Notes: a model not told the origin generated them from the sequence alone. A DNA stretch of 64,000 nucleotides from Candidatus Bathyarchaeota archaeon (GCA_963707955.1 OY970176.1:832001-896000), one strand, 5' to 3'. Numbered from the stretch's first letter, positions 13,559-64,000 are shown. A program made the numbers and translations.

Positions 13559-13933
13559 GTGAGCAGTGAAGCAGAGAGCAAGCCGAAACCGGAGCCGAAC
13601 CTGCTTCAGCACGTGATACGCTATTTTAAGAATGATGGTTACAAGATAGAGCAGGACGAGACATCGCTTGAGGGTTTCAGCGGGATCTCTCAGAAGTTTG
13701 ACCTCATAATTCAGAAGGGCCAGATGGCGCAGGGCGTCTGGATAAGAGATTGGAACAGAACCATAGGCGTTAACGTTATCATAAACATTGACAAGGCTTC
13801 CTCAGACGTGGGGCTTTCGAGCCCGATAATCATAGGCGGAAAGTTCAGCGGCCACGCGAAGTCTTACGCGAACAGAAGAAAGATCACGCTGCTGACGAAG
13901 CAGCAGATAACGCTGAGGCACATGGTCAACTGA
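13559..13933 (+). CDS. Mrr-like restriction-endonuclease-fold protein
   Basis: GFSGISQKFDLII and FSGHAKSYA.RRKI.L patterns; catalytic D/ExK appears degenerate. Confidence 0.6.
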   Translation: MSSEAESKPKPEPNLLQHVIRYFKNDGYKIEQDETSLEGFSGISQKFDLIIQKGQMAQGVWIRDWNRTIGVNVIINIDKASSDVGLSSPIIIGGKFSGHAKSYANRRKITLLTKQQITLRHMVN

Positions 13934-16674: not shown

Positions 16675-18006
16675 TCAAAAACGTGAGCTTTGGCTCGAAG
16701 CATCCATCAATCGGTCAATGCATGTTCTAGTTTTGTAAAGATGTACAATATTCGGAGTAACGCCTGCAAGTGCAACCTCCCATCCAACAGCTTCTTCCCT
16801 CAGCCATTTGCTCACTGAATTTCGATAATGCTTTGGAACGATAAAACAATCCCAAGCTTTTTGAGGAGCATTAATGTATTTCTCCGCCGCTCCTTCCAAT
16901 AGCATCTTTATGGCGCCTGCATTTGTTCGCAGAACGTCGCTTGTAGCGTACACTAATTTGGTTCTCCTAGTTGACCTCGCAATCAACTTTTCCACTTGAC
17001 GATTATATTCCTCAATCGAATTCTGCAGGCTAATGAGAGAGCCACCCTTAGAGGAAGCTTCTGAAACTATTTGCCCAAATATACTTCTCATTGCATTGGT
17101 TGTTCTCGAATCAAAGATGTCGCTGTATTCAGATATTGGCAAGTTCTCAGAATAAGCGATACGAAGTTTTCTCTCGATGAATTCAAGCACATAAGGGTCA
17201 AATGTTTTCAGAGATTCTGTTCTAAGTGGAGCCTCAAGATTCTCAATTTCCCCTATGTACCGACACCCTATATTTGTGGAGAAAGTTGAATTGAACGCTT
17301 TTGCCAGAAGGAATCTTGGAATCATAGCCAACCTATTGGCAAGAATATTAATGTATTCTCTCGGACTACCCTCGTTAGCTAACTTCACCAGTTGTCCTAC
17401 AAATTCTGCTGTGGGCCTTATGCTCGCGCAAAGACGAGTATAACTCGCATACCGATATACGGGAACATTAATCTTCTCCATCTCCTCGCGCTCTTTCTTC
17501 TCTTCTTCGTTTTCTGTCGCAAGAGAAAGCTTTTTGACAAGGTCAGTTCCACTTTTGTAGTCAACTCCAACGGATTCAGCAGTCTTCAATGCTAGCAAGT
17601 CCGACTGCGCACCAGCCAAGAGCAAATTTACATTATTATCAACGAGTTCTTGAATCACTTCCGACATTTGTTTTAAACACCCGAAGCAATCTACATCGAT
17701 AAAGGGCACAAGCCTTCCCTTCTGTGCCAGCGCAACCACCTCTTCAAACGTCAACCCTGTCTCATCTCTAAAACGGTCAACTTTCTCAATTTTCGGCAAA
17801 CCAACAACTAACGTGTCGTATAGAGGTAGCAAACTGGTCGTCGGGACACATTGCACATCAGGCAAGAACACGCTAGTACCCTTCGGAGGCTCAAAACCAA
17901 TAATGTCCTTGACCCGCAAATTGGAGTAATCTTGTTTTTTCAGATGCTCATCGGAGTAGCTTAAGACATCTTCAATGTATCTAGTCCCTCTCTCAGCAGA
18001 AGACAT
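16675..18006 (-). CDS. Hypothetical protein, 443 aa (cargo)
   Basis: Long ORF with no recognised motif. Confidence 0.75.
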   Translation of the reverse strand: MSSAERGTRYIEDVLSYSDEHLKKQDYSNLRVKDIIGFEPPKGTSVFLPDVQCVPTTSLLPLYDTLVVGLPKIEKVDRFRDETGLTFEEVVALAQKGRLVPFIDVDCFGCLKQMSEVIQELVDNNVNLLLAGAQSDLLALKTAESVGVDYKSGTDLVKKLSLATENEEEKKEREEMEKINVPVYRYASYTRLCASIRPTAEFVGQLVKLANEGSPREYINILANRLAMIPRFLLAKAFNSTFSTNIGCRYIGEIENLEAPLRTESLKTFDPYVLEFIERKLRIAYSENLPISEYSDIFDSRTTNAMRSIFGQIVSEASSKGGSLISLQNSIEEYNRQVEKLIARSTRRTKLVYATSDVLRTNAGAIKMLLEGAAEKYINAPQKAWDCFIVPKHYRNSVSKWLREEAVGWEVALAGVTPNIVHLYKTRTCIDRLMDASSQSSRF

Positions 18007-53055: not shown

Positions 53056-53349
53056 GTGAAAAGGAAATACGATTTTGATGCGTTAACGCTGCAATACGGG
53101 TTCAGCGCCAAAGAAATAGAAAAAGTATGCCGAATCTCGGATCTGCTAGAGGACATCTCAGCTGTGAAATTCCTCTCAGACCGCCTATCACTTTACGGCG
53201 GAACAGCTCTCACATTCATCTACTCACCAGAAACACTGCGATTGTCCATAGACCTCGACTTCAACTATCGACACACAGACAATGCAGACTGGGGAGAGAT
53301 CCGAAAGGAAATCGACAAACGGCTGAAAGATCTAGCGCGCGCGCAATAG
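53056..53349 (+). pseudogene. AbiEii-like nucleotidyltransferase toxin, truncated
   Basis: IEKV, YGGTAL and RLSIDLDF motifs; ends in a (GC)n tract after about 93 aa. Confidence 0.82.
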
Positions 53350-53493
53350 GTTACGGCCAACACGCTAGCCCCTTGAAGAAACTTGTCTAGAGGATATTTG
53401 TCTTTGTAGAATGCGTAATCAGAGCTTTAGAGTGTTTGTAGTAAGAGTTAAGTGTAACTTATGTGTCATTTTGTTATGGATAAGGGATACTTC

Positions 53494-53688
53494 ATGAGCG
53501 TAACGAAAACCCGAAGAGTTGGCGGTTCGCTGGTCGTGACAATACCCAAGAAACTCATCGATAGTAAGAAAATCAAGGAAGGAGAGTTGGTGGAGATAAG
53601 CGTAAGGAAGGTAAAGATGGATGGGTTCGGAGCATTTAGAATGCTGAAACCGTTCACGGCGGAAGACGAGTTGAACGCGCATGACTAG
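53494..53688 (+). CDS. AbrB/MazE-type antitoxin (VapB-like)
   Basis: KTRRVGGSLVVTIPK...IKEGELVEI. Confidence 0.85.
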   Translation: MSVTKTRRVGGSLVVTIPKKLIDSKKIKEGELVEISVRKVKMDGFGAFRMLKPFTAEDELNAHD

Positions 53689-54088
53689 AGAATATGTAGT
53701 TGACGCGTATGCTTGGATAGAGTATCTGATTGGAAGCGACGTCGGCGCAAGAGTCAAGGTTGTACTTGAGGATGAGAATAATGGGATTTACACGAGCGCT
53801 GTGACGCTTGGAGAGGTGATAAGCAAGATTGCTCGTGAAGAGCAGGACGTGTGTACTGCGTATCGCATTTTGCTCAGTAACTCAGATGTCATTGACGTAG
53901 ATGAGGAGTTGTCGAAGCAAACAGGAATAATTCACGCTGAAATGCGAAAGAGCAAGAAAGATTTCGGACTGGCCGACGCATTCGTTTTGGCCACGGCAAG
54001 AAAACTTGGAACAAGAATCCTGACAGGTGACCCACACTTCCAAGGCATCAAAGAAGCGACGCTAGTGATAAAAAAGCCTGTTAGTTAA
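53681..54088 (+). CDS. vapC: PIN-domain toxin (VapC-like)
   Basis: VVDAYAWIEY, GLADAF and ILTGDPHF motifs; overlaps the antitoxin gene. Confidence 0.9.
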   Translation: MTREYVVDAYAWIEYLIGSDVGARVKVVLEDENNGIYTSAVTLGEVISKIAREEQDVCTAYRILLSNSDVIDVDEELSKQTGIIHAEMRKSKKDFGLADAFVLATARKLGTRILTGDPHFQGIKEATLVIKKPVS

Positions 54089-54307
54089 TCTTCTATGACT
54101 CCTCCTGCGACGGGAGAGCAGATATCTCATAGTATCTAGGCATATCTCCTCGGTTAATAGGCAAAGGCGAAATCTACTAGGTAAGACATTCGGAACGGAT
54201 TTTCTATCAAGCAGAGCCCTGATTCAGGTATCGACTATGGGGTAAGCAAAGTCTTATACAATCTGGGTTAAGACTAACTGTCTCCGAGACTAGCGCGCGG
54301 GTTGTGC

Positions 54308-55051
54308 ATGGTCGAGTATGAGCATAGAGGCAAGACTTCGAAACCGTTTGTGACTTTTTGGGGATCACTTACGAGCAAGGAAGGAGGAAAGGAGAGGGCA
54401 CGCATTGTGCTGGAACCCGTAAATGAATACTGCAAGCAGGCAAAGAAGATACTGGAAATAGGTTGCGGAATTGGAGAGGTCTTGGTCAATCTTCCCGATA
54501 GATACGCTGTCTACGGTTTGGACGTCGAAAGAGACTACATTGAGGTTTGCAGAAGGAGAATGCCAAGGGGCGAGTTTTTTGTTTTCAGCATGCACAACTT
54601 CAAGGTTGATGAGAAGTTTGATGTCATTTTCTCTGCTAACGATGCTGTCAACTTTCTGAAGGATTTTGCCCAGTAGAAATCAACGTTCAAGGCGGTGTAT
54701 GAACATCTTAAAAGGGATGGGCTGTTCATCTTTGATGTGTATACTCCGAAGATGCTGAGGGATACGGTTCGTTGGTTGGAAAAGTATAACAGGTCCACTT
54801 CATCGGTCAGGGAATTTGCCAAAGGATTCTACTATGACAAGGAGATTGTGAAGGGCAACACGCTGACTTGGGATTCCAGAGTCTTTGAAGAACTCCCAAA
54901 TGGACTTTACAGGCTTCACAAGTACAAGTTTAAAGAAACGATGTACCCGGTTGCAAAGATGAAATCCGCCCTGTCCGAGTATTTCGAGATCGTTGAAGCC
55001 GATTTGAGAGAAGAAGGCAGAAAGATTCTATTTGTCTGCAGAAAAAATTAA
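54308..55051 (+). pseudogene. Class I SAM-dependent methyltransferase with an internal TAG at 54674-54676
   Basis: ILEIGCGIG, FDVIF and HLKRDGLFIFD in one frame. Confidence 0.8.
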
Positions 55052-55394
55052 AAGCGCACGCTTCTTCAAAGCGCAGAATCAGCTCTAACGTCACTCTAGG
55101 CGGCATGCCTGATGTGTATAGAATTATATCGCGACACATAAAGCGAATTGTACAATGGGCTGGTCACTGATTGGCAAGAAAACACATTGTCAGGGTTGTT
55201 TTGAGTTCACAACACAAGGAAATGCTAGACGATATTGCCAGAAATTGGGCAGAGTCAAAGTGAGACTCTGCTTGTAGCCTTCCTAGAATACGCGAAAAGT
55301 CTAAGCCTAGTACCTGAAAAAGTCCATGAAAAAAGAAGAGAATCTAGCTATCAAAGCGGAAAAATGATTCAATTTCAGTTGTCGAAAAGAATTT

Positions 55395-56678
55395 ATGATA
55401 AGAAAAGAACATAGGATTGGAATGGGCACCACCAAGAAGGATGCACTCACTAGTGATTTGCGCGATGCTATTGCCAAAGAACTACTGGATTCCCTATATA
55501 TAGGATTTGAGTTAAGCAAAAAGGTGTACTTCATACTTGACACCTCTGATAGAGATGCCGAGTTTCTTCAAGATTATATATTGGCCGAGATTCGAGCTCG
55601 ATTGGGAGAACCCTTTGTTGTAGATTTTGCAGAAGTGGGATCTGGAATTACACTCGTGCAGGATCTTCTCACCATGATTTTTCTGAGGTCCGAATTCCCC
55701 TTTGCTTTACTAAACACAAAGAAGAAAGGGACTCATATCAGAATATTCCAAGTTTTCTTGGAGAAAACTAATCAGCCCCTTCTAGAGATTGCTCAACGAT
55801 TCCTTGAATGCAAACGCTTGAATAATCGCCAAAGAAAGAAGTTGAACGTTGACTCCGATCTTTCTGATTTAAGAAATGCTGTTGACTTCTTCACAGAAGG
55901 AGTATGTTCGTATTTTCAATCCTCGAAGAGAATGCCTGTTTTCTATTTCAAGAATCTTAAGCTTGATAAAGATGAGCTGAAAGCGGACGCAACAACCAGA
56001 TTTCTTGAAGGAGTACAGAGAGAAATTCCATGTGTCTTTGTTATGAAGGTCGAAAGAGACTCTGAATATCTGTTACTCTATGTTGAGGATTGTTCCAACA
56101 TAACCAGAATTCCTGCCTTACGTTCCGAGAACCTGAAGGACTCTGTTTCTCGTATATGTGAATCCTCGCAATCTGCAAACAAGCCAAGATTTACCGAAGA
56201 GGGACTGTGTGAATTTTGCAGTGCAATGTCTCATATTCACGGAAAGACTCTTTCTGCGTCAGCACTGACAAAAGCTTTGCTTGATGCTGAGGGCAACGCA
56301 AGGTTGAATAAATCTGAAACGATTTCGGCCGAAACAGTCAGAGAACTCTTTTCAGTTGCCACCGTTAACGCAGCACGTCCGAAACCGAGAGAGCCCAGAG
56401 TTGGTCTCTCACCATATTTTGCCACTGAAGTCGAGCGTCTTACTAGGCAGTGCAAAATCTTTGGACTGGATCCACATTATGCCCTACCTTGGAATTTCAA
56501 GAAAGTTATGTACTATATCAGTTCCGGGTCCCTGAGATACTGCCAAGATAGTGACACATTTGAGACTTTGAGATACATTGGACACCAGTATTGGCTCGAC
56601 TTGGATTCTGCACTTCGTTTGATGGGTTATAGGTATGCCGGAGAAGGAAAGTGGGTTTTTTCGCCGCAGAGAGAGTGA
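55395..56678 (+). CDS. Hypothetical protein, possibly a degenerate AAA+ fold
   Basis: 427 aa; RFTEEGL...ETISAETVREL resembles an AAA+ lid; no Walker A seen. Confidence 0.7.
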   Translation: MIRKEHRIGMGTTKKDALTSDLRDAIAKELLDSLYIGFELSKKVYFILDTSDRDAEFLQDYILAEIRARLGEPFVVDFAEVGSGITLVQDLLTMIFLRSEFPFALLNTKKKGTHIRIFQVFLEKTNQPLLEIAQRFLECKRLNNRQRKKLNVDSDLSDLRNAVDFFTEGVCSYFQSSKRMPVFYFKNLKLDKDELKADATTRFLEGVQREIPCVFVMKVERDSEYLLLYVEDCSNITRIPALRSENLKDSVSRICESSQSANKPRFTEEGLCEFCSAMSHIHGKTLSASALTKALLDAEGNARLNKSETISAETVRELFSVATVNAARPKPREPRVGLSPYFATEVERLTRQCKIFGLDPHYALPWNFKKVMYYISSGSLRYCQDSDTFETLRYIGHQYWLDLDSALRLMGYRYAGEGKWVFSPQRE

Positions 56679-56684
56679 CATATC

Positions 56685-58334
56685 CTATAGTGTTTTGAAC
56701 AGAATCGTAAATCTTGCTTTTCTCAAGCTGTTGCTAGCCATGTCCTTATCATGAGTCAGGAGTGTCGCGTCGTAGAGTTCGGCAATATCTATAATCATTC
56801 TGTCAATCGAATTGAAGCTGGAGGTTTCCTTGATCTCGGACCCAGTAGGATTTCGACCAACTTCACTTAATTCAATCCTACCCGTGGAATTAAGACCCAC
56901 CAACATTTGATATTCTTGTCTTGCCAGTCTACTTACTAATCGTTTCTCTTCTTTCTTATCCCATGAGGACATTTCAGAAAGAACAGCAATCGGAATGAAG
57001 ACTTTGATCCGCCGTGTTTTAAGCTCTGGAATCCATTTGCATAGCGCCGAGAAGTCGAGTCCTGCTAGCGATGACGTATCAAGTACAAGCGAATACAGAG
57101 TGTCTGCTAGGAAATTTATCAAATGGTTTGCGTTGGTTCCGCAGAACGGACATGTCGCTCTCCTTATCGTGACCGCTGTGTTGCCAATGGGCATGGTCGT
57201 CTCAACCACAAGCAGAGGCAACTTGCTACCACAGTTAGTGCATTTGAAGAAGAGAGTTGGAAGCATTTCTGACACGGTTTTTTCGAGATCTTTCTTGGAA
57301 ATGAAATATTCCTGCCTGTCTTGGACTGAACGGTTGAGAGATTTCTGCATGATTTTAACTAGCTTTCCCGGTTCCAAAGGAAACATGCTCAGGAGGTATT
57401 TCTCTGCCTCTGAAGTGAGAGGATAACTTGCAGACGTCAAGTGCTCATCAAGTTTTACATCGGATAAGGCCTTAGTCTTGGCAGAATCAACGTAACTTTT
57501 CCTTGCATCTGTAATGAACTCTCCTATGTCTCTCTCCAGCAAAAGAGGAAGTTCGAGGTTTTCAAAAGCGGCGCTTTTTGGATGTAATATTCGGTTAAAG
57601 CCATCGATTTTACCCGACTCGATAGAGAGGAAGAAACTGGACAAGTCCATCACTGAACTCAAGAGTTTAGCCATCTGAACTTTATTGTCCTCATTAATGT
57701 AAGTGATCAGATCATCAAACAAGATTTCGCAATGATCAGCAATCAAGACCGGATAAAACTGCTTCTGAAAGAAGGCATAATAGAAGCGCAAAAGGTTCGC
57801 AAGCACGTCAATCTCAATCCAGACATCTTTGATATTGGGCATCCAACTTTCGCCATGTTTCACTAGGTTTCCATTCAACCATTCTCTCAACTTCTCAGGG
57901 TTCCGACTGACCCTTGTGAAAACCGTTGCAATTACACTGGACGCACCAGTTAGTTGTCTCAGATCAGGAAGACCATTTGGCTTAGCAACAAATTCCAGAA
58001 AGGCATCTACACAACCGTTCAGCATGAGAGAGTTAAGAATCTGAGAATATAATTGAAAGGGCACTCTGGCGAAAATGAAATCAACCTCGAGACAACGCAT
58101 CTGCGACTCACTGAAAATCCTGTTTCGAACAAAAGCCAATAGATGCGTCTTCCCTGATTGATGCGGACCGTATATCACAATCTGGGCTCTCGAATTCACC
58201 TTCAGAATAGCTGTTATTAACCCTTCAATCCTTTTCTTCAATTCACCCCTTTCAAAATATAGTAGTGCGTCAAGGAGCGGGTTTGGAACAAGATTCTTTC
58301 GCACAAGAAATTCTTCGTAGAGCAATCGCTTCAC
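56685..58334 (-). CDS. P-loop ATPase-Zn ribbon-PIN fusion protein
   Basis: GPHQSGKT; CTNC...CPFC; LVLDTS...VLSEM...IDRMII...LLTHD. Confidence 0.85.
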   Translation of the reverse strand: MKRLLYEEFLVRKNLVPNPLLDALLYFERGELKKRIEGLITAILKVNSRAQIVIYGPHQSGKTHLLAFVRNRIFSESQMRCLEVDFIFARVPFQLYSQILNSLMLNGCVDAFLEFVAKPNGLPDLRQLTGASSVIATVFTRVSRNPEKLREWLNGNLVKHGESWMPNIKDVWIEIDVLANLLRFYYAFFQKQFYPVLIADHCEILFDDLITYINEDNKVQMAKLLSSVMDLSSFFLSIESGKIDGFNRILHPKSAAFENLELPLLLERDIGEFITDARKSYVDSAKTKALSDVKLDEHLTSASYPLTSEAEKYLLSMFPLEPGKLVKIMQKSLNRSVQDRQEYFISKKDLEKTVSEMLPTLFFKCTNCGSKLPLLVVETTMPIGNTAVTIRRATCPFCGTNANHLINFLADTLYSLVLDTSSLAGLDFSALCKWIPELKTRRIKVFIPIAVLSEMSSWDKKEEKRLVSRLARQEYQMLVGLNSTGRIELSEVGRNPTGSEIKETSSFNSIDRMIIDIAELYDATLLTHDKDMASNSLRKARFTILFKTL

Positions 58335-58389
58335 TAGTTAATCTTTTCTACTGAATCTGTTTATAATGATTGGGGCAAGGTCGATTGCA

Positions 58390-59862
58390 ATGGAGTCATT
58401 AGGTATCAAGTATATACCCAAGGAATATGTCAAAGTTGGCGATCGTCTTTCGATAGATAGTAGAGCAATAAAAGGGAAGAACATAATACTGAGTCATTCC
58501 GCAGAGAGAATCGAATTTGATTCCATCATATTCTTGGGAAAAGTTGTTGAACACACTCCGACAGTTGACTATTTCGGGTTCAATGTATGGTTAGATACAA
58601 GCTACCCCTTCGTCGTTCTAGTTCCTGGAAGAAGAGGCACTGGAAAGAGCTACACTCTAGGCATTCTGTCTGAAGGATTGGCGTTAAATAAAGACGAAAG
58701 TCCAATCACCACAAAAGAAACTAGTCATTCAGTTGTAATCATTGACACGCTTGGACAGTTCTGGCAGATGAAATACAAACCCAATGCAAATGATTATGAG
58801 GGTAAGAAACAGTTAGAGGATTTGAATGATTGGGGATTAAAGCCAGTCGCTTTGAGCAACATTCAGGTTTTTACTCCAAAGGGCATGAAAATTGGAGAAT
58901 CATGGAAAGAGCTTTCTATCCGATTCTGTGAAGTTGAAGTTGGTGAACTTGCTGGGTTTCTAGACGTAGATTTGTATCTTGATCGAATGGGGCAACTACT
59001 GCTGCATATCTATGAAAGAGTGGACGAAGGTGGGTACCAAAGCGCTCACATTGACGAAAAGACAAATGAAGTTGTTAAGGGAGCATTCATTCCAATTTCG
59101 AAAGATTTTGATATAGATGACCTGATAGGTTGCATAGATTCTGATCATGAGATAATCTCGAAGACAACGGGATTTGAGGTTCAAACTCGTCGAGCCCTGA
59201 GAAATCGTCTGATGATAATGCGTAAATGGAAGATCTTCTCGGACAAAGGAACCGCGATAAACGAGATCGTCAAAGAAGGGACACTCACGGTTGTTGATTT
59301 GGAAGGCGCAGATCAGGATTTGAGGAACCTTGTCACTGCTGTATTGACAAGGAAGATATTTCAGGCAAGATCAGAGGCCCGAAGACAGGAGAAACTTGCA
59401 GAGACTGAAGGAGCTGATACTTTCTTTAAGAAATCCCCAATATTGACACCAATGTGGTTAGTCATTGACGAAGCGCATGAGTATTGCCCTTCCACAGGGC
59501 GGACAGCAGCAAAAGAGCCACTGATTCGATTTGCGAAGGAAGGCAGAAGCATCGGATTAGGTTTGATAATGGCAACGCAACAACCTTCTGCTCTGTCTGA
59601 GAAGATCTCTTCCCAGACGGAGGTATTGATCAGTCATGCACTGGCATTTGCAAGTGACATTCAGTCACTCGAAAATCGACTTGTCAACAAGAAAGTAGAT
59701 ACATTTCAGGGCAGAAACCAATCTCACTCATTTGAAGATCAGATTCGCCTTATCTCTCCAGGCACAGCATTTGTTTCCATTGTGAACGTGTCTTCCGTTT
59801 TTCTGCTAATGCTTAGGCCGAGACTGACTATGCATGGAGGAAAGGCGCCCAAAATGGGTTGA
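58390..59862 (+). CDS. HerA/FtsK-family ATPase
   Basis: GRRGTGKS, VIDEAH and KEGRSIGLGLIMATQQP motifs. Confidence 0.9.
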   Translation: MESLGIKYIPKEYVKVGDRLSIDSRAIKGKNIILSHSAERIEFDSIIFLGKVVEHTPTVDYFGFNVWLDTSYPFVVLVPGRRGTGKSYTLGILSEGLALNKDESPITTKETSHSVVIIDTLGQFWQMKYKPNANDYEGKKQLEDLNDWGLKPVALSNIQVFTPKGMKIGESWKELSIRFCEVEVGELAGFLDVDLYLDRMGQLLLHIYERVDEGGYQSAHIDEKTNEVVKGAFIPISKDFDIDDLIGCIDSDHEIISKTTGFEVQTRRALRNRLMIMRKWKIFSDKGTAINEIVKEGTLTVVDLEGADQDLRNLVTAVLTRKIFQARSEARRQEKLAETEGADTFFKKSPILTPMWLVIDEAHEYCPSTGRTAAKEPLIRFAKEGRSIGLGLIMATQQPSALSEKISSQTEVLISHALAFASDIQSLENRLVNKKVDTFQGRNQSHSFEDQIRLISPGTAFVSIVNVSSVFLLMLRPRLTMHGGKAPKMG

Positions 59863-60332
59863 TATTAGTGCCAATTATCGATGCTGATCAGATAAGGATA
59901 TGGACGGAAGATATTCCGGGAAAGTTTGCAGAACTATTGCGGATTTCTGACCCATTGAATGTCTACATATCTTCTCCATGGATAAGTGAATTTGAGCATC
60001 CGTTAATAAATCTCAGAAGGATTCTAGCCAAAAAGAAAGCCAGTACTATAATACTGACGAGACCGCCACAGAACCTTGCCTCAAAACGATTTCTCGCAAG
60101 ACTTAAGAATGAAACTCCTACAAGGATTTATGTTAACAGGCGTCTTCACGCCAAACTATACATAATTGAAGGACCCAAGCAAAAATACGTGGTTATCGGC
60201 TCATCCAATTTTACGCAGGAAGCACGTTTCAATGTTGAATTCGCCGTAGTAATCGTGGGAAGTGATATCATGACAAAAAGAGTAATATACAGTTTCCTCG
60301 CATACCTGAAACCAGCATGCGCGATTTGGTGA
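59859..60332 (+). CDS. Single-domain PLD-family nuclease (DpdK-like)
   Basis: ISSPWIS, LHAKLYI and GSSNFT motifs. Confidence 0.85.
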   Translation: MILVPIIDADQIRIWTEDIPGKFAELLRISDPLNVYISSPWISEFEHPLINLRRILAKKKASTIILTRPPQNLASKRFLARLKNETPTRIYVNRRLHAKLYIIEGPKQKYVVIGSSNFTQEARFNVEFAVVIVGSDIMTKRVIYSFLAYLKPACAIW

Positions 60333-61516
60333 CTGATTTGCAGTGTTCTGACTATGGTTTGAAGCGTCCATCTTTTCAATTAGATCCAGAAATGGACAGC
60401 GAGATATTTGTGGGCAGAGAGGACGTAAAGAAACGTTTGGAGGATCGCCTTAAACGCGCAATTGTAACTGGCACGAGTCTTCATACCTTTATATACGGCG
60501 ATTATGGATCAGGCAAGACTCATACTCTGAACTATGTCTACAGGTTCTTGAATAAGCAGGATCTCAATGTCTTGCCTATACTTGTTCGTCAGCCTAGGAT
60601 TACGCAGAAATCCGACCCATCTGACTTGTATGCGAGCATTGTTTCGGCAGTCTCAATTTCCGAGATTTTCACCTTGTTTGTTAGGGTACACGACTCCGTT
60701 CAGACCAAACTTAAAGATATAACCGACTTGTACAAACGCGTAGAAGTACTGCGAGGAGTGGTTGAGAATAGAGATTTGTCATTCATCATAAACAATTATG
60801 TTACGAACAGACCGATCGAAGATTATGCCGTGGTCAAGTGGCTTTCGGGCGAAAAGATGGCGGCTAGAGAGAAGGCCGTTTTGAATGTTGTCACGGACAA
60901 CTCTGATCCTTATGTAGCTATCCAGACACTTTTAGCTCTCGTTAAGCTATTTAACAAGATAGGGAAAAAATACGTTTTGTTAATGCTTGACGAGATGGAA
61001 TCTTTGCAAATGATAAGCAGCGAGAAAAAACAAATGCCTTTTGAGGAATTCCTACGGATCCTCACGAGCGAAGATAAAGGACTTGGGGTCCTGTTGGCTC
61101 ACACTACGAAACAAGCCCTAGAAGATGTGACGCCGATGTTTAAAAGCAACACGGCAATAGGTACAAGAATTGGCTATCCGCAGAATTACATTTATCTCAA
61201 ACAATTTGAAGACATGGAATCAATGAAGACCTTTGCGCGGCAGCTCATCAGCGCGTTGAGGGACCCAAAAATCGACGTAAAAGCTCTGGCAAAGAAAAAT
61301 CAGAGCAATACAAACGAACACCTAGCTCTTGATTTCTATCCCTTTACAGAGGAAGCAATTGAAGCAATACACCAATTATCTCAGGGTAGTGGCATGATAA
61401 AACTGTTACTGCCGCGGGACATTCAAAAAGTCATGACGGATAGTCTGGGGGATGCGATGATTCAAAACAGGGCTTTCGTCGATCAAGAAATTGTCTCAAA
61501 GATCATGTCAACCTGA
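60317..61516 (+). CDS. AAA+ ATPase (BrxD/DUF2791-like)
   Basis: FVGRE, GDYGSGKT, LMLDEME, YPFTEEAI and LPRD motifs. Confidence 0.85.
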   Translation: MRDLVTDLQCSDYGLKRPSFQLDPEMDSEIFVGREDVKKRLEDRLKRAIVTGTSLHTFIYGDYGSGKTHTLNYVYRFLNKQDLNVLPILVRQPRITQKSDPSDLYASIVSAVSISEIFTLFVRVHDSVQTKLKDITDLYKRVEVLRGVVENRDLSFIINNYVTNRPIEDYAVVKWLSGEKMAAREKAVLNVVTDNSDPYVAIQTLLALVKLFNKIGKKYVLLMLDEMESLQMISSEKKQMPFEEFLRILTSEDKGLGVLLAHTTKQALEDVTPMFKSNTAIGTRIGYPQNYIYLKQFEDMESMKTFARQLISALRDPKIDVKALAKKNQSNTNEHLALDFYPFTEEAIEAIHQLSQGSGMIKLLLPRDIQKVMTDSLGDAMIQNRAFVDQEIVSKIMST

Positions 61517-61530
61517 TTTGAATTGAACCG

Positions 61531-62649
61531 TTAAGCTCGGATGTATCTTCTTCCTGGAATACGCGTAGAGAAATCGAATTTCCTAACCTTTGCTAGTTGC
61601 ACAATCTTTTCCCCATACTCAGCATAGCTCAGACTCTTCGAAAAATCAAGAGAAGAAGCAAGTATCGAAAAGTACAGATCCTCATATGGTATCATGATTA
61701 GTCCAATGTATTTGTAGAATGCTGTGAAGTGAGAGAATTGTCTTTCGAATTCTTCATCAGTCAAGGCGACTAGTCCCTTTCCGTAATTCTCTGCTAGAAG
61801 GATTCCAAGGTTGTTTTCCTTGTCATCGAGGAGTTTTGATACTGCTTTGTCGTCTAACGAGGTCAATTGTTTCTTGAAATCCTTGGCGAGATCACTTAGG
61901 CTAAACTCAGAGCGTTCCTTCATAACAAAACCTGTATCCCTAAGAAAGTGCAATCTGGGGTAAATCTGGCTCTCTCTATGGATTTTGCCATATCCACCTT
62001 CCTTCTCGCTTTTTGCAAATCTGGCTTTCTCTGCTGCATAGAAATTGCGTCTGGTCGAATTTAATTCAATTTGGGCCTTTCTCTCATACCACTTGCTTAC
62101 AGCTGCAAAATATCGATCCTGCAAATCTGATTCAGTGACACTGTCATCCATACACTGAATAAGAGGAATTGTCCCATCCGGGTCTGACGATAGAAGAGCA
62201 TTTGCAAAGACAAATTGCTCGGACCGTGGTAACTTTGCAACTAATCCCCTAGTCCTAAGCATCTCCTCTTTTTTCTGAGGGTCAAGAAATAGAGGTTTTC
62301 CTTTGTCATCTGAGTATCTACCCGCAAGATGCCATCCGTACTTACGCCAAATGTTTATCTCTGGTTTGATAAAACCTAGATTTTGCGCTAACAAGACATG
62401 GCCCATTGCGATAGAATCCTTGCTTGCGACAACGGTCTTGTCGCCAATACCGCTCCCTGACACGGAAAGATTCGTTTCAGGATCCTCATTCCACTTGTAC
62501 TCTTCCCTGTATTTCCTGACAGTTTCCTTGTATTTTGCGACCAATTGAGATGTAAAAATGTAACTCGATGGAAATGTCAGCAGCACAATTACCTTTATGA
62601 AGCCCAACCTTTTCAGCGGTAGACTGAGATTTATGAAACGCTCGATCAT
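61531..62649 (-). CDS. Hypothetical protein of the defence-like island
   Basis: About 372-aa ORF with possible winged-helix segments; start uncertain. Confidence 0.7.
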   Translation of the reverse strand: MIERFINLSLPLKRLGFIKVIVLLTFPSSYIFTSQLVAKYKETVRKYREEYKWNEDPETNLSVSGSGIGDKTVVASKDSIAMGHVLLAQNLGFIKPEINIWRKYGWHLAGRYSDDKGKPLFLDPQKKEEMLRTRGLVAKLPRSEQFVFANALLSSDPDGTIPLIQCMDDSVTESDLQDRYFAAVSKWYERKAQIELNSTRRNFYAAEKARFAKSEKEGGYGKIHRESQIYPRLHFLRDTGFVMKERSEFSLSDLAKDFKKQLTSLDDKAVSKLLDDKENNLGILLAENYGKGLVALTDEEFERQFSHFTAFYKYIGLIMIPYEDLYFSILASSLDFSKSLSYAEYGEKIVQLAKVRKFDFSTRIPGRRYIRA

Positions 62650-62745
62650 CAAGATACACTGTACAGTGAAAGATACATATAAAAAAGAGTGTTTGAGAAC
62701 TAGCAATAATGAGAGTTCAGTAATGTTACCCCTTTGCTTGAGTTC

Positions 62746-64000
62746 TTAAGGTATGTATTTCAAAAGACCTGCCTCGGGCGGGGTTGCTTTTTCAATGATA
62801 TTACACAAATCCCCATAGCCTTTGCTCCTGATGATCGTGAACCGATCGTCCCAGAGGTTATGAAGTGCTTTTCGATACTTCTCTCCTGCAATTACAACTA
62901 TTTTATCATGTTCTTTGAGTAATTCTCCCAACTTCTTTTCGACAGCGGGTTGGATATCTAGAACATCTTGTTCATTGCTGAGGATTTTTTCGTAACCACC
63001 AATGATGTCGTTCGGCAAGAGCAAGCCGTATTTTGCAGAGATGATTACGTAGTTGAACCCCATTGCTTGACAATATCTCCTAACACACTTGAACAATCGG
63101 CCTTGGTACATCTCTTGGGCAGTTGTTCTGACGTTAATACGGTAACCGAGTTTCCTTTTGCTACACTCCGTTACGACGAGAACGTTGTCGCCTTTCTTCA
63201 AAGACGAAAGCTCTGTTCCGGGTTTTTTTTCTCTCCAGTTCATGAATGCAGCCCATAGTTTCGGGTTCTTGAAGACACTGTGAAAAACATATGTATTGTG
63301 AAAACCTCGACGGCGATTACGGTTATTTCCCCTGAATATCACCACCTCGATGCCGGCTTGTCTGCATATTGGGCAACCGCATGATTTCCAGGGCTTATCT
63401 TCCAAGGTTCTGCGGTAAAAAGGTAACAACTCAGGACTCTCGCCTATGGCTTTGTTGAATCTAAACAAGACCAACATTACTTCATCAATACTTGCTTCAT
63501 TTCCATCATACAACCTCAGAGTCTTCAAACTCTCTTGCTCGAGGTTTTTCAACCGGGGAAGAGCAAAACCGGCAGGCAGTTTCTTCGCTCTCTGTGCCCT
63601 CAATTTATTCGTGAAAGGAATCCTTATCGCCGTATAACCTTTCCCTTCAGGATTCAGATAGTTAAGTTGAGACATGGGGGCAGACAACCAAGCCTTACGA
63701 AGATATGAAGCTGAGTCAAATCCAACTCTAACCCCCAAATTCTCCAGTTCCTGGAAGCGCGGAAACAAAGCAGTTCTTGCTAAACCGAAAAAGTGAAGAT
63801 AAGTGGGCATTTTCTTTGAGTGGCTTATCTCAACGAGCAGCTCATCTATCAACTTCGCTATGAATGGAGTCAACGATCGTGAAAGACCGCCAAACGCTAA
63901 GTGTGAAGCACCCATGCCAACGTAGTTCTTGTACATCTTGATGTAGTCTGAGATATCCCAACCTTGAATGGCCACTACAAGTTGAAAATCATCGATGTAT
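62746..64000 (-). CDS. dpdA: DpdA-like DNA transglycosylase (TGT fold) with a C-terminal DUF6884-like domain; 5' end outside window
   Basis: AIQGW, LHFFGLAR, FDSASYLRKAW, YTAIRIP, PWKSCGCPIC and FRGNNRNRRRGFHN motifs; C-terminal ECSKRK...MYQGRLF...IISAKYGLL. Confidence 0.82.
   Translation of the reverse strand, partial: YIDDFQLVVAIQGWDISDYIKMYKNYVGMGASHLAFGGLSRSLTPFIAKLIDELLVEISHSKKMPTYLHFFGLARTALFPRFQELENLGVRVGFDSASYLRKAWLSAPMSQLNYLNPEGKGYTAIRIPFTNKLRAQRAKKLPAGFALPRLKNLEQESLKTLRLYDGNEASIDEVMLVLFRFNKAIGESPELLPFYRRTLEDKPWKSCGCPICRQAGIEVVIFRGNNRNRRRGFHNTYVFHSVFKNPKLWAAFMNWREKKPGTELSSLKKGDNVLVVTECSKRKLGYRINVRTTAQEMYQGRLFKCVRRYCQAMGFNYVIISAKYGLLLPNDIIGGYEKILSNEQDVLDIQPAVEKKLGELLKEHDKIVVIAGEKYRKALHNLWDDRFTIIRSKGYGDLCNIIEKATPPEAGLLKYIP

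Follow-up and report, generated by a model that had tools for sequence, protein, structure and literature searches.

A DpdA-linked gene island in a Bathyarchaeota genome, a putative two-armed modification-restriction system with a HerA-PLD arm

Described relatives and how the locus compares

To date, 7-deazaguanine in cellular DNA has been demonstrated for bacteria and viruses (sections of PMC10164549 and PMC6884629 drawn on here). In the Dpd system of Salmonella enterica serovar Montevideo, as set out in the same sections of PMC10164549, the DpdA residues D95, D130 and D256 serve as general acid/base, base-binding aspartate and nucleophile (D95 and D256 being needed for activity), and ATP hydrolysis by DpdB is needed for insertion. 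Here we analyse a gene island in a Candidatus Bathyarchaeota archaeon whose left part closes a stretch of 64,000 nucleotides (GCA_963707955.1, OY970176.1:832001-896000, hereafter the window, taken from a single-contig 2.35-Mb genome), and in which a gene for a DpdA::DUF6884 fusion is accompanied on one side by a HerA/FtsK-type ATPase, a phospholipase D (PLD) family nuclease, a BrxD-like AAA+ ATPase and a tandem winged-helix protein, and on the other by a second set of ATPase, transglycosylase and winged-helix protein together with genes for preQ0 synthesis. We lean towards the reading that the island encodes one two-armed modification-restriction system of Dpd type with a new restriction arm.

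Like the Salmonella system, the island extends over about 20 kb, has an ATPase next to DpdA, is linked to preQ0 genes and includes a PLD nuclease and a domain related to DpdC; the two DpdAs belong to one family and share their catalytic aspartates and zinc site. The island differs in that DpdA and the DpdC-like domain are joined in one polypeptide, that a BrxD-like AAA+ ATPase stands in place of the ParB-like DpdB, that a second transglycosylase and a tandem winged-helix protein are added, and that the restriction arm consists of HerA, a 157-aa PLD protein, an AAA+ ATPase and a winged-helix protein. The superfamily 2 (SF2) helicases of the bacterial cluster are DpdE, DpdF and DpdJ; neither an SF2 helicase nor a ParB-like DpdB was found in any open reading frame (ORF) of the island with Pfam, PADLOC and NCBIfam, and the PLD protein reaches 21.4 bits against the DpdK equivalog NF041068 (cut-off 100). 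The island would work in the manner of Dpd but falls outside that system for want of DpdB, the SF2 helicases and a PLD of DpdK grade. The first-pass annotation of the window had seen no SF2 helicase, DpdB or DpdC; the first two absences hold, and the third has to be given up, since a DpdC-related DUF6884 domain forms part of the fusion.

The closest relative in print is the BREX-related capture (BRC) system (PMC12839542), for which deazaguanine self-marking without DpdB or DpdC has been proposed and which, going by the sections drawn on here, shares with the island a HerA/FtsK protein, an ORC/Cdc6-type ATPase, a BrxA-like multi-winged-helix protein, a further NTPase and a homologue of tRNA-guanine transglycosylase (TGT). 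The features proper to BRC in those sections (PglZ effector, DUF6079, DUF4007, STAND NTPase and GNAT) were not detected in the island ORFs, and the island differs further by its PLD nuclease, by a bona fide DpdA with DpdC-like domain and by the inclusion of preQ0 genes. The HerA/FtsK capture systems (PMC10853773) similarly bring together HerA/FtsK, an Orc/Cdc6-clade ATPase, a winged-helix protein and a nuclease; in the sections drawn on here they use nucleases of restriction endonuclease (REase) fold with an inactive REase insert and have no modification genes, whereas the island has an HKD nuclease and its set is linked to DpdA. Membership of the MADS family of systems was considered and rejected, as HerA alone matches a MADS protein (mad8). 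We found no literature on DpdA::DUF6884 or on an archaeal association of DpdA, HerA and PLD, and the supplements of PMC12839542 and PMC10853773 might list such loci.

The DpdA::DUF6884 fusion and its preQ0 supply

The last gene of the window encodes an ORF of 581 aa (573 aa in its recorded form) that scores 331.4 bits against the NCBIfam DpdA equivalog NF041059 (cut-off 200, profile positions 1-404 of 406; 183.9 bits for the piece inside the window alone) and 290 bits against the PADLOC DpdA model. Its only match in the PDB at E <=0.01 is S. Montevideo DpdA (7ui4, E 1e-58, residues 8-405 aligned), no tRNA TGT chain in the PDB matching at that threshold, and it stays below the listing threshold of every tRNA TGT model. 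D97, D132 and D259 align with D95, D130 and D256 of 7ui4, the Cys3His zinc ligands are C371, C373, C376 and H398, and the three aspartates and the zinc ligands are invariant in 31 of 31 family members. In a tree of 57 rows the DpdA domain groups with DpdAs from bacteria and other archaea in a DpdA clade of 39 rows (SH-aLRT 99), and the 7 archaeosine TGTs (ArcTGTs) form a separate clade (100). On these grounds the gene is, by sequence, a true DpdA, for which insertion of preQ0 into DNA is predicted; the DpdA-like label given at first pass is borne out, and a grouping with tRNA-modifying enzymes is not observed.

The C-terminal 140 residues of the fusion are a DUF6884 domain (PF21818, cut-off 30 bits), which Pfam authors describe as a distant relative of YaaA with the motifs CxxxK and LSAxxG (PMC11701544, in the sections drawn on here); both motifs are recognisable in the fusion, as CSKRK and ISAKYG. 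The domain matches three PADLOC DpdC models (E 1.2e-6 to 0.004) and the model PDC-M57A (E 2.7e-15; the term 'PDC-M57' occurs in no paper searched). DpdC itself is given as DUF328/PF03883 in the sections of PMC12839542 drawn on here, and PF03883 is matched by 6 of the 120 listed members of the fusion family. The form of about 570 aa, with DpdA followed by DUF6884, is common in archaea (it accounts for nearly all of the best 120 of 3379 matches), and the named close homologues come from Bathyarchaeia, Nitrososphaeria, methanogen and Aenigmatarchaeota assemblies. The bacterial DpdAs nearest to the archaeal family are each encoded by one ORF of 670-805 aa (L033, L038, L049, L058, L064, L082 and 12 more loci), in which 264-378 residues stand ahead of the DpdA domain without a break in the frame (18 of 18 translated); this N-terminal part matches the PADLOC DpdC models (E 1e-8 to 1e-13) and PDC-M57A in all six that were scanned. 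The bacterial form thus reads, at the level of domain matches, as DpdC-like::DpdA, the reverse order of the archaeal fusion, and the joining of the two domains in both orders is, in our view, a strong indication of joint action.

Next to the modification genes the island carries FolE2, QueD, QueC and QueE. Its QueC is the sole strong one in the genome (207 bits, next match 42 bits), and QueC was found in just 7 of 40 relatives, while ArcTGT occurs in 30 of 31 genomes from the order; in this genome a separate ArcTGT of 538 aa (575 bits against TIGR00432) lies 1.07 Mb away. These observations suggest that the island brings its own preQ0 pathway and does not depend on a resident one, so that the earlier proposal of preQ0 being drawn from the archaeosine pathway is not needed. 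Conversely, the cell's tRNA archaeosine probably also draws on the island QueC, which, together with the second transglycosylase having its best match in the ArcTGT model (147 bits), could be taken to mean that the TGT-family and preQ0 genes serve tRNA archaeosine and that their nuclease neighbours are unrelated. We regard this as very improbable: the genome has its full-length ArcTGT elsewhere, as is usual in the order, the second transglycosylase lacks the C-terminal and PUA domains and stays below the 350-bit cut-off of that model, the fusion is not listed by any tRNA TGT model, and none of the 40 relatives was found to carry it (10 from the genus itself, 14 at family and 16 at order level; >=90% completeness and <=5% contamination apply to 23).

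In the deposited record two of these genes appear damaged: the second transglycosylase loses its frame behind the CxCxxC motif, and FolE2 falls into two separate ORFs. At L002:13892 (L002 being the locus whose positions equal window positions minus 52999) one base is absent in three runs of one study (depths 31.1/31.1, 6.88/6.88 and 5.3/5.3), and contigs of run X1 have an extra C behind L002:17442 as well as T>C at 17436. Orthologues of the second transglycosylase measure 342-356 aa, and FolE2 is contiguous and in frame in two related loci (L115 and L126). Since short-read contigs contradict both lesions and the orthologues are intact, we take both as assembly errors. Other frameshifts in this assembly may likewise be artefacts.

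The HerA-PLD arm and its linkage to the fusion

The linkage of the two arms was followed in two scans. A scan seeded with the fusion family returned 499 loci in 185,579 species genomes, and among the 80 that were compared the trio of BrxD-like ATPase, second transglycosylase and u284 (the tandem winged-helix protein of the modification arm) stands beside the fusion in 7 (from Aenigmatarchaeota, Bathyarchaeia, Methanoregula and Methanobacteriota), with a weaker BrxD-like match in 3 more; the block of HerA, PLD, BrxD-like ATPase and u391 (the winged-helix protein of the restriction arm) stands beside it in 2, both from Bathyarchaeia (L017 and L030). A second scan of metagenome contigs, seeded with HerA alone, gave 24 loci, 17 of them at >=54% HerA identity. 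Within these 17, PLD and the BrxD-like ATPase are each present in 15 (the remaining two contigs end inside HerA), u391 in 13 and the fusion in 9, two of the nine fusions being just distantly related (29-30% identity). The 8 close contigs without the fusion stop <=1.8 kb past the HerA block, hence there is no clear counter-example among the 17, and the fusion is carried by all nine close loci with enough flank. One locus (L114) holds the whole gene set in the order seen here, and L115 and L126 have the preQ0 genes next to the system (L119 has QueE there). Judged by gene content, the system is conserved in at least a dozen archaeal contigs, and the co-occurrence elsewhere on which the first-pass annotation had made its proposal depend is thereby found.

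Within the window, seven ORFs follow one another at spacings from a 16-nt overlap to 39 nt, and orthologues elsewhere match them in length, from which we take the genes to be free of lesions. The dense packing, the intact frames and the seven identities proposed at first pass (two unknown proteins, ATPase-zinc-PIN, HerA, PLD, AAA+ and DpdA-like) all stand after family scans (Pfam, PADLOC and NCBIfam) and direct reading of motifs in the translations. HerA matches DUF87 (E 8.8e-13, 49 bits, cut-off 23), and its Walker A (GRRGTGKS) and Walker B (DEAHE) motifs are invariant among homologues. The PLD gene starts 4 nt inside the HerA gene; its product reaches 35 bits against PLDc_2 (cut-off 27), and 16 of 16 homologues keep H97, K99, G114, S115 and N117 of the HxK...GSxN motif, whose Asp position varies (E here). 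A prediction of the HerA-PLD complex scored 0.01, which speaks neither for nor against binding. The BrxD-like ATPase of 399 aa has both Walker motifs intact. The ATPase-PIN protein combines a Walker A motif (GPHQSGKT), a CxxC...CxxC zinc ribbon and a PIN domain, and has full-length homologues in 8 loci. Two proteins, u427 and u391, belong to no Pfam, PADLOC or NCBIfam family. The former has 7 full-length homologues adjoining HerA; its structure matches in the Atlas are AAA_16/AAA_22-like and weak (TM 0.43-0.50, a lead only), and no P-loop is seen in the family consensus, so that u427 is possibly of AAA+-like fold without a P-loop.

For u391 an AlphaFold model (pLDDT 84, pTM 0.86) depicts an array of winged helices, which VIA-align places near the recognition domain of FokI (Z 9.6 over 185 residues), N.BspD6I (Z 9.2) and BrxA (7zge, Z 8.2, 176 of 199 residues), the last winged helix resembling those of ORC/Cdc6 (Z about 9); Foldseek gave nothing below E 0.06. 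The model of u284 (pLDDT 85) is that of a tandem winged-helix protein of no known family, with Foldseek matches to a SelB C-terminal fragment (E 3.8e-4) and then to RPC62, FokI and SspB. No relation between the two was detected by hhalign (probability 1.5%), and a PDB profile search with the three proteins lacking a family gave weak winged-helix hints only (E 0.07 or worse). Each winged-helix protein clearly trails the ATPase and enzymes of its arm in conservation in L114, L119 and L126 (for L114, 62% identity for u391 and 65% for the other, as against 78-91% for the remaining proteins except DUF6364 with 72%), and u391 is the fastest-evolving member of the HerA arm in the closer loci. This low conservation fits a role of u391 and u284 in target recognition.

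The fusion also has other partners. UvrD and PD-(D/E)XK genes lie directly upstream of it in L021, L022, L023, L024, L031 and L034 (Pfam scans), and they would be expected in L025 and L027 from the likeness of these to L024. The archaeal loci of this type (L021-L034; Methanoregula, Methanosarcina and Methanobacterium) carry the same fusion family at 34-50% identity, with UvrD and PD-(D/E)XK where the island has its 498-aa HerA and 157-aa PLD; L022, L024, L025 and L027 share the same trio of TGT, winged-helix and BrxD-like proteins, and a longer HerA of 605-659 aa is found nearby in L021, L022, L023, L028 and L032. A third set, PLD with large DEAD-box helicases, accompanies the fusion in a Bathyarchaeia metagenome-assembled genome (L019), in Caldivirga (L074) and in Vulcanisaeta (L087), and resembles the restriction part of bacterial Dpd. 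This arrangement would amount to one modification hub with interchangeable nuclease and motor modules, as expected of a modification-restriction system, and the first-pass proposal of a different restriction module gains from both the linkage of HerA-PLD to the fusion elsewhere and the other nuclease and motor sets that archaea carry at this place. Further neighbours of the fusion include a YhhQ-family (Vut_1) transporter in Vulcanisaeta (L087:7349-7942) and OGG- or AGOG-like DNA glycosylases that follow it in L022 (11756-12661) and L017 (11728-12696).

Several observations weigh against a single two-armed system. The fusion occurs with other partner sets as well, and the Pfam scan recognised no nuclease or motor module next to it in L018 and L029, which makes the two arms separable. 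A more distant HerA (42-44% identity; L130 and L131) stands with PLD and BrxD on 14-kb contigs with neither u391 nor DpdA, which indicates that the HerA-PLD-BrxD trio can exist alone, and in L119 and L126 the modification genes are 78-85% conserved as against 48-61% for the HerA arm, from which we conclude that the arms have different histories. On the side of the individual proteins, DUF6884 aligns only to about positions 41-104 of the 310-319 of the DpdC profiles, that is to their N-terminal third, and DpdC-like chemistry is for this reason not assured; H181 of 7ui4 is replaced by Q176 in the fusion, glutamine being the residue of tRNA TGTs at this position; the fold matches of u391 and u284 are middling (Z 8-9.6; Foldseek E 3.8e-4); and the assignment of the FolE2 split to assembly error rests on the single run X1, which may be the source sample.

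The first group of these observations would suit two independent systems side by side, namely a deazaguanine module (restriction-less or separately restricted) and a HerA/FtsK capture system blind to the mark, the more so as free-standing neighbourhoods of HerA/FtsK, Orc/Cdc6, winged helix-turn-helix and nuclease genes have been described (sections of PMC10853773 drawn on here) and as the island occupies a hotspot where a close relative holds unrelated defence genes (see below). What makes us consider such a pairing unlikely is that the fusion accompanies close HerA loci in every case with sufficient flank in spite of varied gene order and orientation, and that u391 and the fusion are 39-61 nt apart on the same strand both here and in L114. 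We therefore continue to prefer the two-armed system.

Borders and origin of the island, and a proposed mechanism

Compared with the closest relative (G007), a DNA identity of 90-95% stops at genome position 887062 (window 55062) and picks up again at about 907867, at a metallo-beta-lactamase (MBL) gene, with G007 being devoid of the island DNA. The cluster, rightly said at first pass to run off the window, is about 2.4 times as long as the part visible there. Its G+C content is 42.7% as opposed to 47.9% for the genome, and as low a value occurs in none of the roughly 465 genome windows of equal size. Given the identity break, the low G+C and the absence of the fusion from all 40 relatives, the island is foreign and was horizontally acquired. 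Between the same flanks G007 appears to have a GHKL/MORC-like ATPase, an N6/N4 methylase with MvaI/BcnI endonuclease (a type II restriction-modification cassette) and a ParA-like ATPase (L113, G007:C14:4000-18000; the join of its two contigs is inferred), and since the relative holds other defence genes at this site, we regard the site as a variable defence hotspot.

The foreign origin could also fit mobile-element cargo whose deazaguanine shields DNA from other restriction enzymes and is not the self-mark of a linked arm, in the manner of phage DpdA and preQ0 genes, which protect DNA from restriction (sections of PMC6884629 drawn on here). An 11-bp repeat (AGCGCACGCTT) at or within about 40 bp of both island edges could be counted in favour of this, with an E of 0.43 that may reflect chance; no direct repeats beyond this 11-mer were found at the island ends, and no tRNA gene that could act as integration site in the window or in L002. 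No integrase, capsid or viral family was recognised by Pfam in the island ORFs, and a PHROGs scan of 12 proteins (9 of the island and 3 of other loci) gave 0 matches. Moreover, the modification genes of the close family are always accompanied by nuclease or motor genes, and this DpdA is of the bacterial-chromosome type, for which low insertion rates are reported (bioRxiv 10.1101/2023.04.13.536721, in the sections drawn on here). Such a cargo role for the modification genes appears improbable to us.

Right of the island follow an MBL/beta-CASP nuclease and then a NurA-HerA-Mre11-Rad50 operon. This operon, the ArcTGT of 538 aa and the archaeal sources of the fusion's named close homologues mark the organism as an archaeon, as supposed at first pass. 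Just left of it (window 53056-54676) are an AbiEii-like fragment, a PIN (VapC-like) gene and a truncated methyltransferase, in common with G007, and about 820 bp at genome positions 886244-887062 recur at 2245753-2246567. There are no tandem repeats or (GC)5 tracts in window 55000-64000, in agreement with the absence of long (GC)n tracts remarked upon earlier; a scarcity of such tracts was rejected as a sign of foreign DNA, given that 29% of island-size genome windows have as few. Farther left (window 13108-53344) there are 27 distinct (GC)4-5 tracts against 0.59 expected by chance, a density about 3.5x the genome-wide 0.19 per kb, and none in 53345-64000. At the right end of the island, TGT380 and four ORFs upstream of it were rejected as parts of the system and set aside as separate cargo, as they are without homologues in any of the 104 related loci. 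Proteins of the TGT380 type are very divergent, with 5 other protein clusters only among 5.8 billion proteins. The features are collected in Table 1.

Table 1. Features of the island and its surroundings (positions refer to the window unless a locus or the genome, G000, is named)
Feature	Position	Strand	Evidence or remark
Acquired island, ~20.8 kb	G000 887063-907866 (window 55063 to ~75866, extrapolated)		identity breaks against G007
Part of the island inside the window (left 8.9 kb)	55063-64000		
u427, 427 aa	55395-56678	+	no known family
P-loop ATPase with zinc ribbon and PIN nuclease domain, 549 aa	56685-58334	-	PIN E 2.6e-5
HerA/FtsK-type ATPase (motor), 498 aa (HerA498)	58366-59862	+	DUF87, HerA_C; PADLOC mad8 and HerA models
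Single-HKD PLD-family nuclease, 157 aa (PLD157)	59859-60332	+	PLDc_2
BrxD-like (ORC/Cdc6-type) AAA+ ATPase of putative restriction arm, 399 aa	60317-61516	+	BrxC_BrxD E 1.1e-18
u391, tandem winged-helix protein, 391 aa	61531-62706	-	structure model
DpdA::DUF6884 fusion	62746 to beyond 64000; whole gene L002:9747-11492	-	NF041059, PADLOC DpdA
DpdA domain of the fusion	63268 to beyond the window	-	
DUF6884 (DpdC/YaaA-related) domain of the fusion	62851-63168	-	PF21818 59 bits
Ribbon-helix-helix (RHH)-like ORF, 43 aa	L002:11591-11722	-	conserved upstream of the fusion in 8 loci
Second BrxD-like AAA+ ATPase, 393 aa	L002:11825-13006	+	
Second transglycosylase (ArcTGT-like, no PUA)	L002:13003 to ~14083	+	frameshifted in the record at 13892
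u284, tandem winged-helix protein, 284 aa	L002:14087-14941	+	
QueE	L002:15087-15725	-	
QueC	L002:15722-16471	-	
QueD	L002:16508-16900	-	
FolE2	L002:16882-17675	-	split in the record
DUF6364 protein	L002:17679-18008	-	
Separate cargo, four unknown ORFs	L002:18178-19619 and L003:6-1523		
Separate cargo, third TGT paralogue (TGT380), 380 aa	L003:1632-2774		PF01702 72 bits

Under the preferred reading of one two-armed system, we infer from the protein sequences and their arrangement every biochemical step, the identity of the mark and the protein that reads it. FolE2, QueD, QueE and QueC would convert GTP to preQ0, which the DpdA domain would exchange for guanine in double-stranded DNA, and the fused DpdC-like DUF6884 domain would act on the base once inserted, with the amide dADG as the most likely product. 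The BrxD-like ATPase of the modification arm may stand in for the absent DpdB as an ATP-driven helper, u284 may recognise the sites to be modified, the second ArcTGT-like transglycosylase may act as partner subunit or serve a second site, and the small RHH-like protein may be a regulator. In the restriction arm the other BrxD-like ATPase and the FokI/BrxA-like u391 would read unmarked DNA, which the HerA ring would translocate into a dimer of the single-HKD PLD, as other HerA-nuclease pairs suggest. The ATPase-zinc-ribbon-PIN protein, often part of the cluster and possibly the abortive back-up proposed at first pass, and u427 would be accessory or second-line parts, and PIN domains have been proposed as second-line effectors in BREX-like systems (sections of PMC12839542 drawn on here). 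Each arm would thereby follow the same logic, with an ORC/Cdc6-type AAA+ ATPase, a multi-winged-helix reader and an enzyme. A more specific version, which we put forward tentatively, is that the chromosomes of some archaea carry a sparse 7-deazaguanine epigenetic mark set by two cooperating transglycosylases, of which one is joined to its own finishing enzyme, that are loaded by the ORC/Cdc6-type ATPase and aimed by the fast-evolving winged-helix protein, and that a paralogous AAA+/winged-helix pair reads the absence of the mark and licenses the HerA ring to pass foreign DNA to the PLD nuclease.

A conserved archaeal system that is self-sufficient in preQ0 would extend 7-deazaguanine chemistry to archaeal chromosomes, and would do so with a compact writer in which DpdA and a DpdC-like domain are joined, without the poorly understood DpdB. 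Furthermore, the family would offer a natural experiment in which one DNA mark is wired to different restriction engines, and would suggest, for DUF6884 and for BrxD-like ATPases beyond BREX, a function open to testing. If the reading is true, the island would represent the first case of HerA-driven restriction that depends on a deazapurine mark, and its archaeal relatives one modification hub that swaps at least three engines: HerA-PLD, UvrD-PD-(D/E)XK, and PLD with SF2 helicases.

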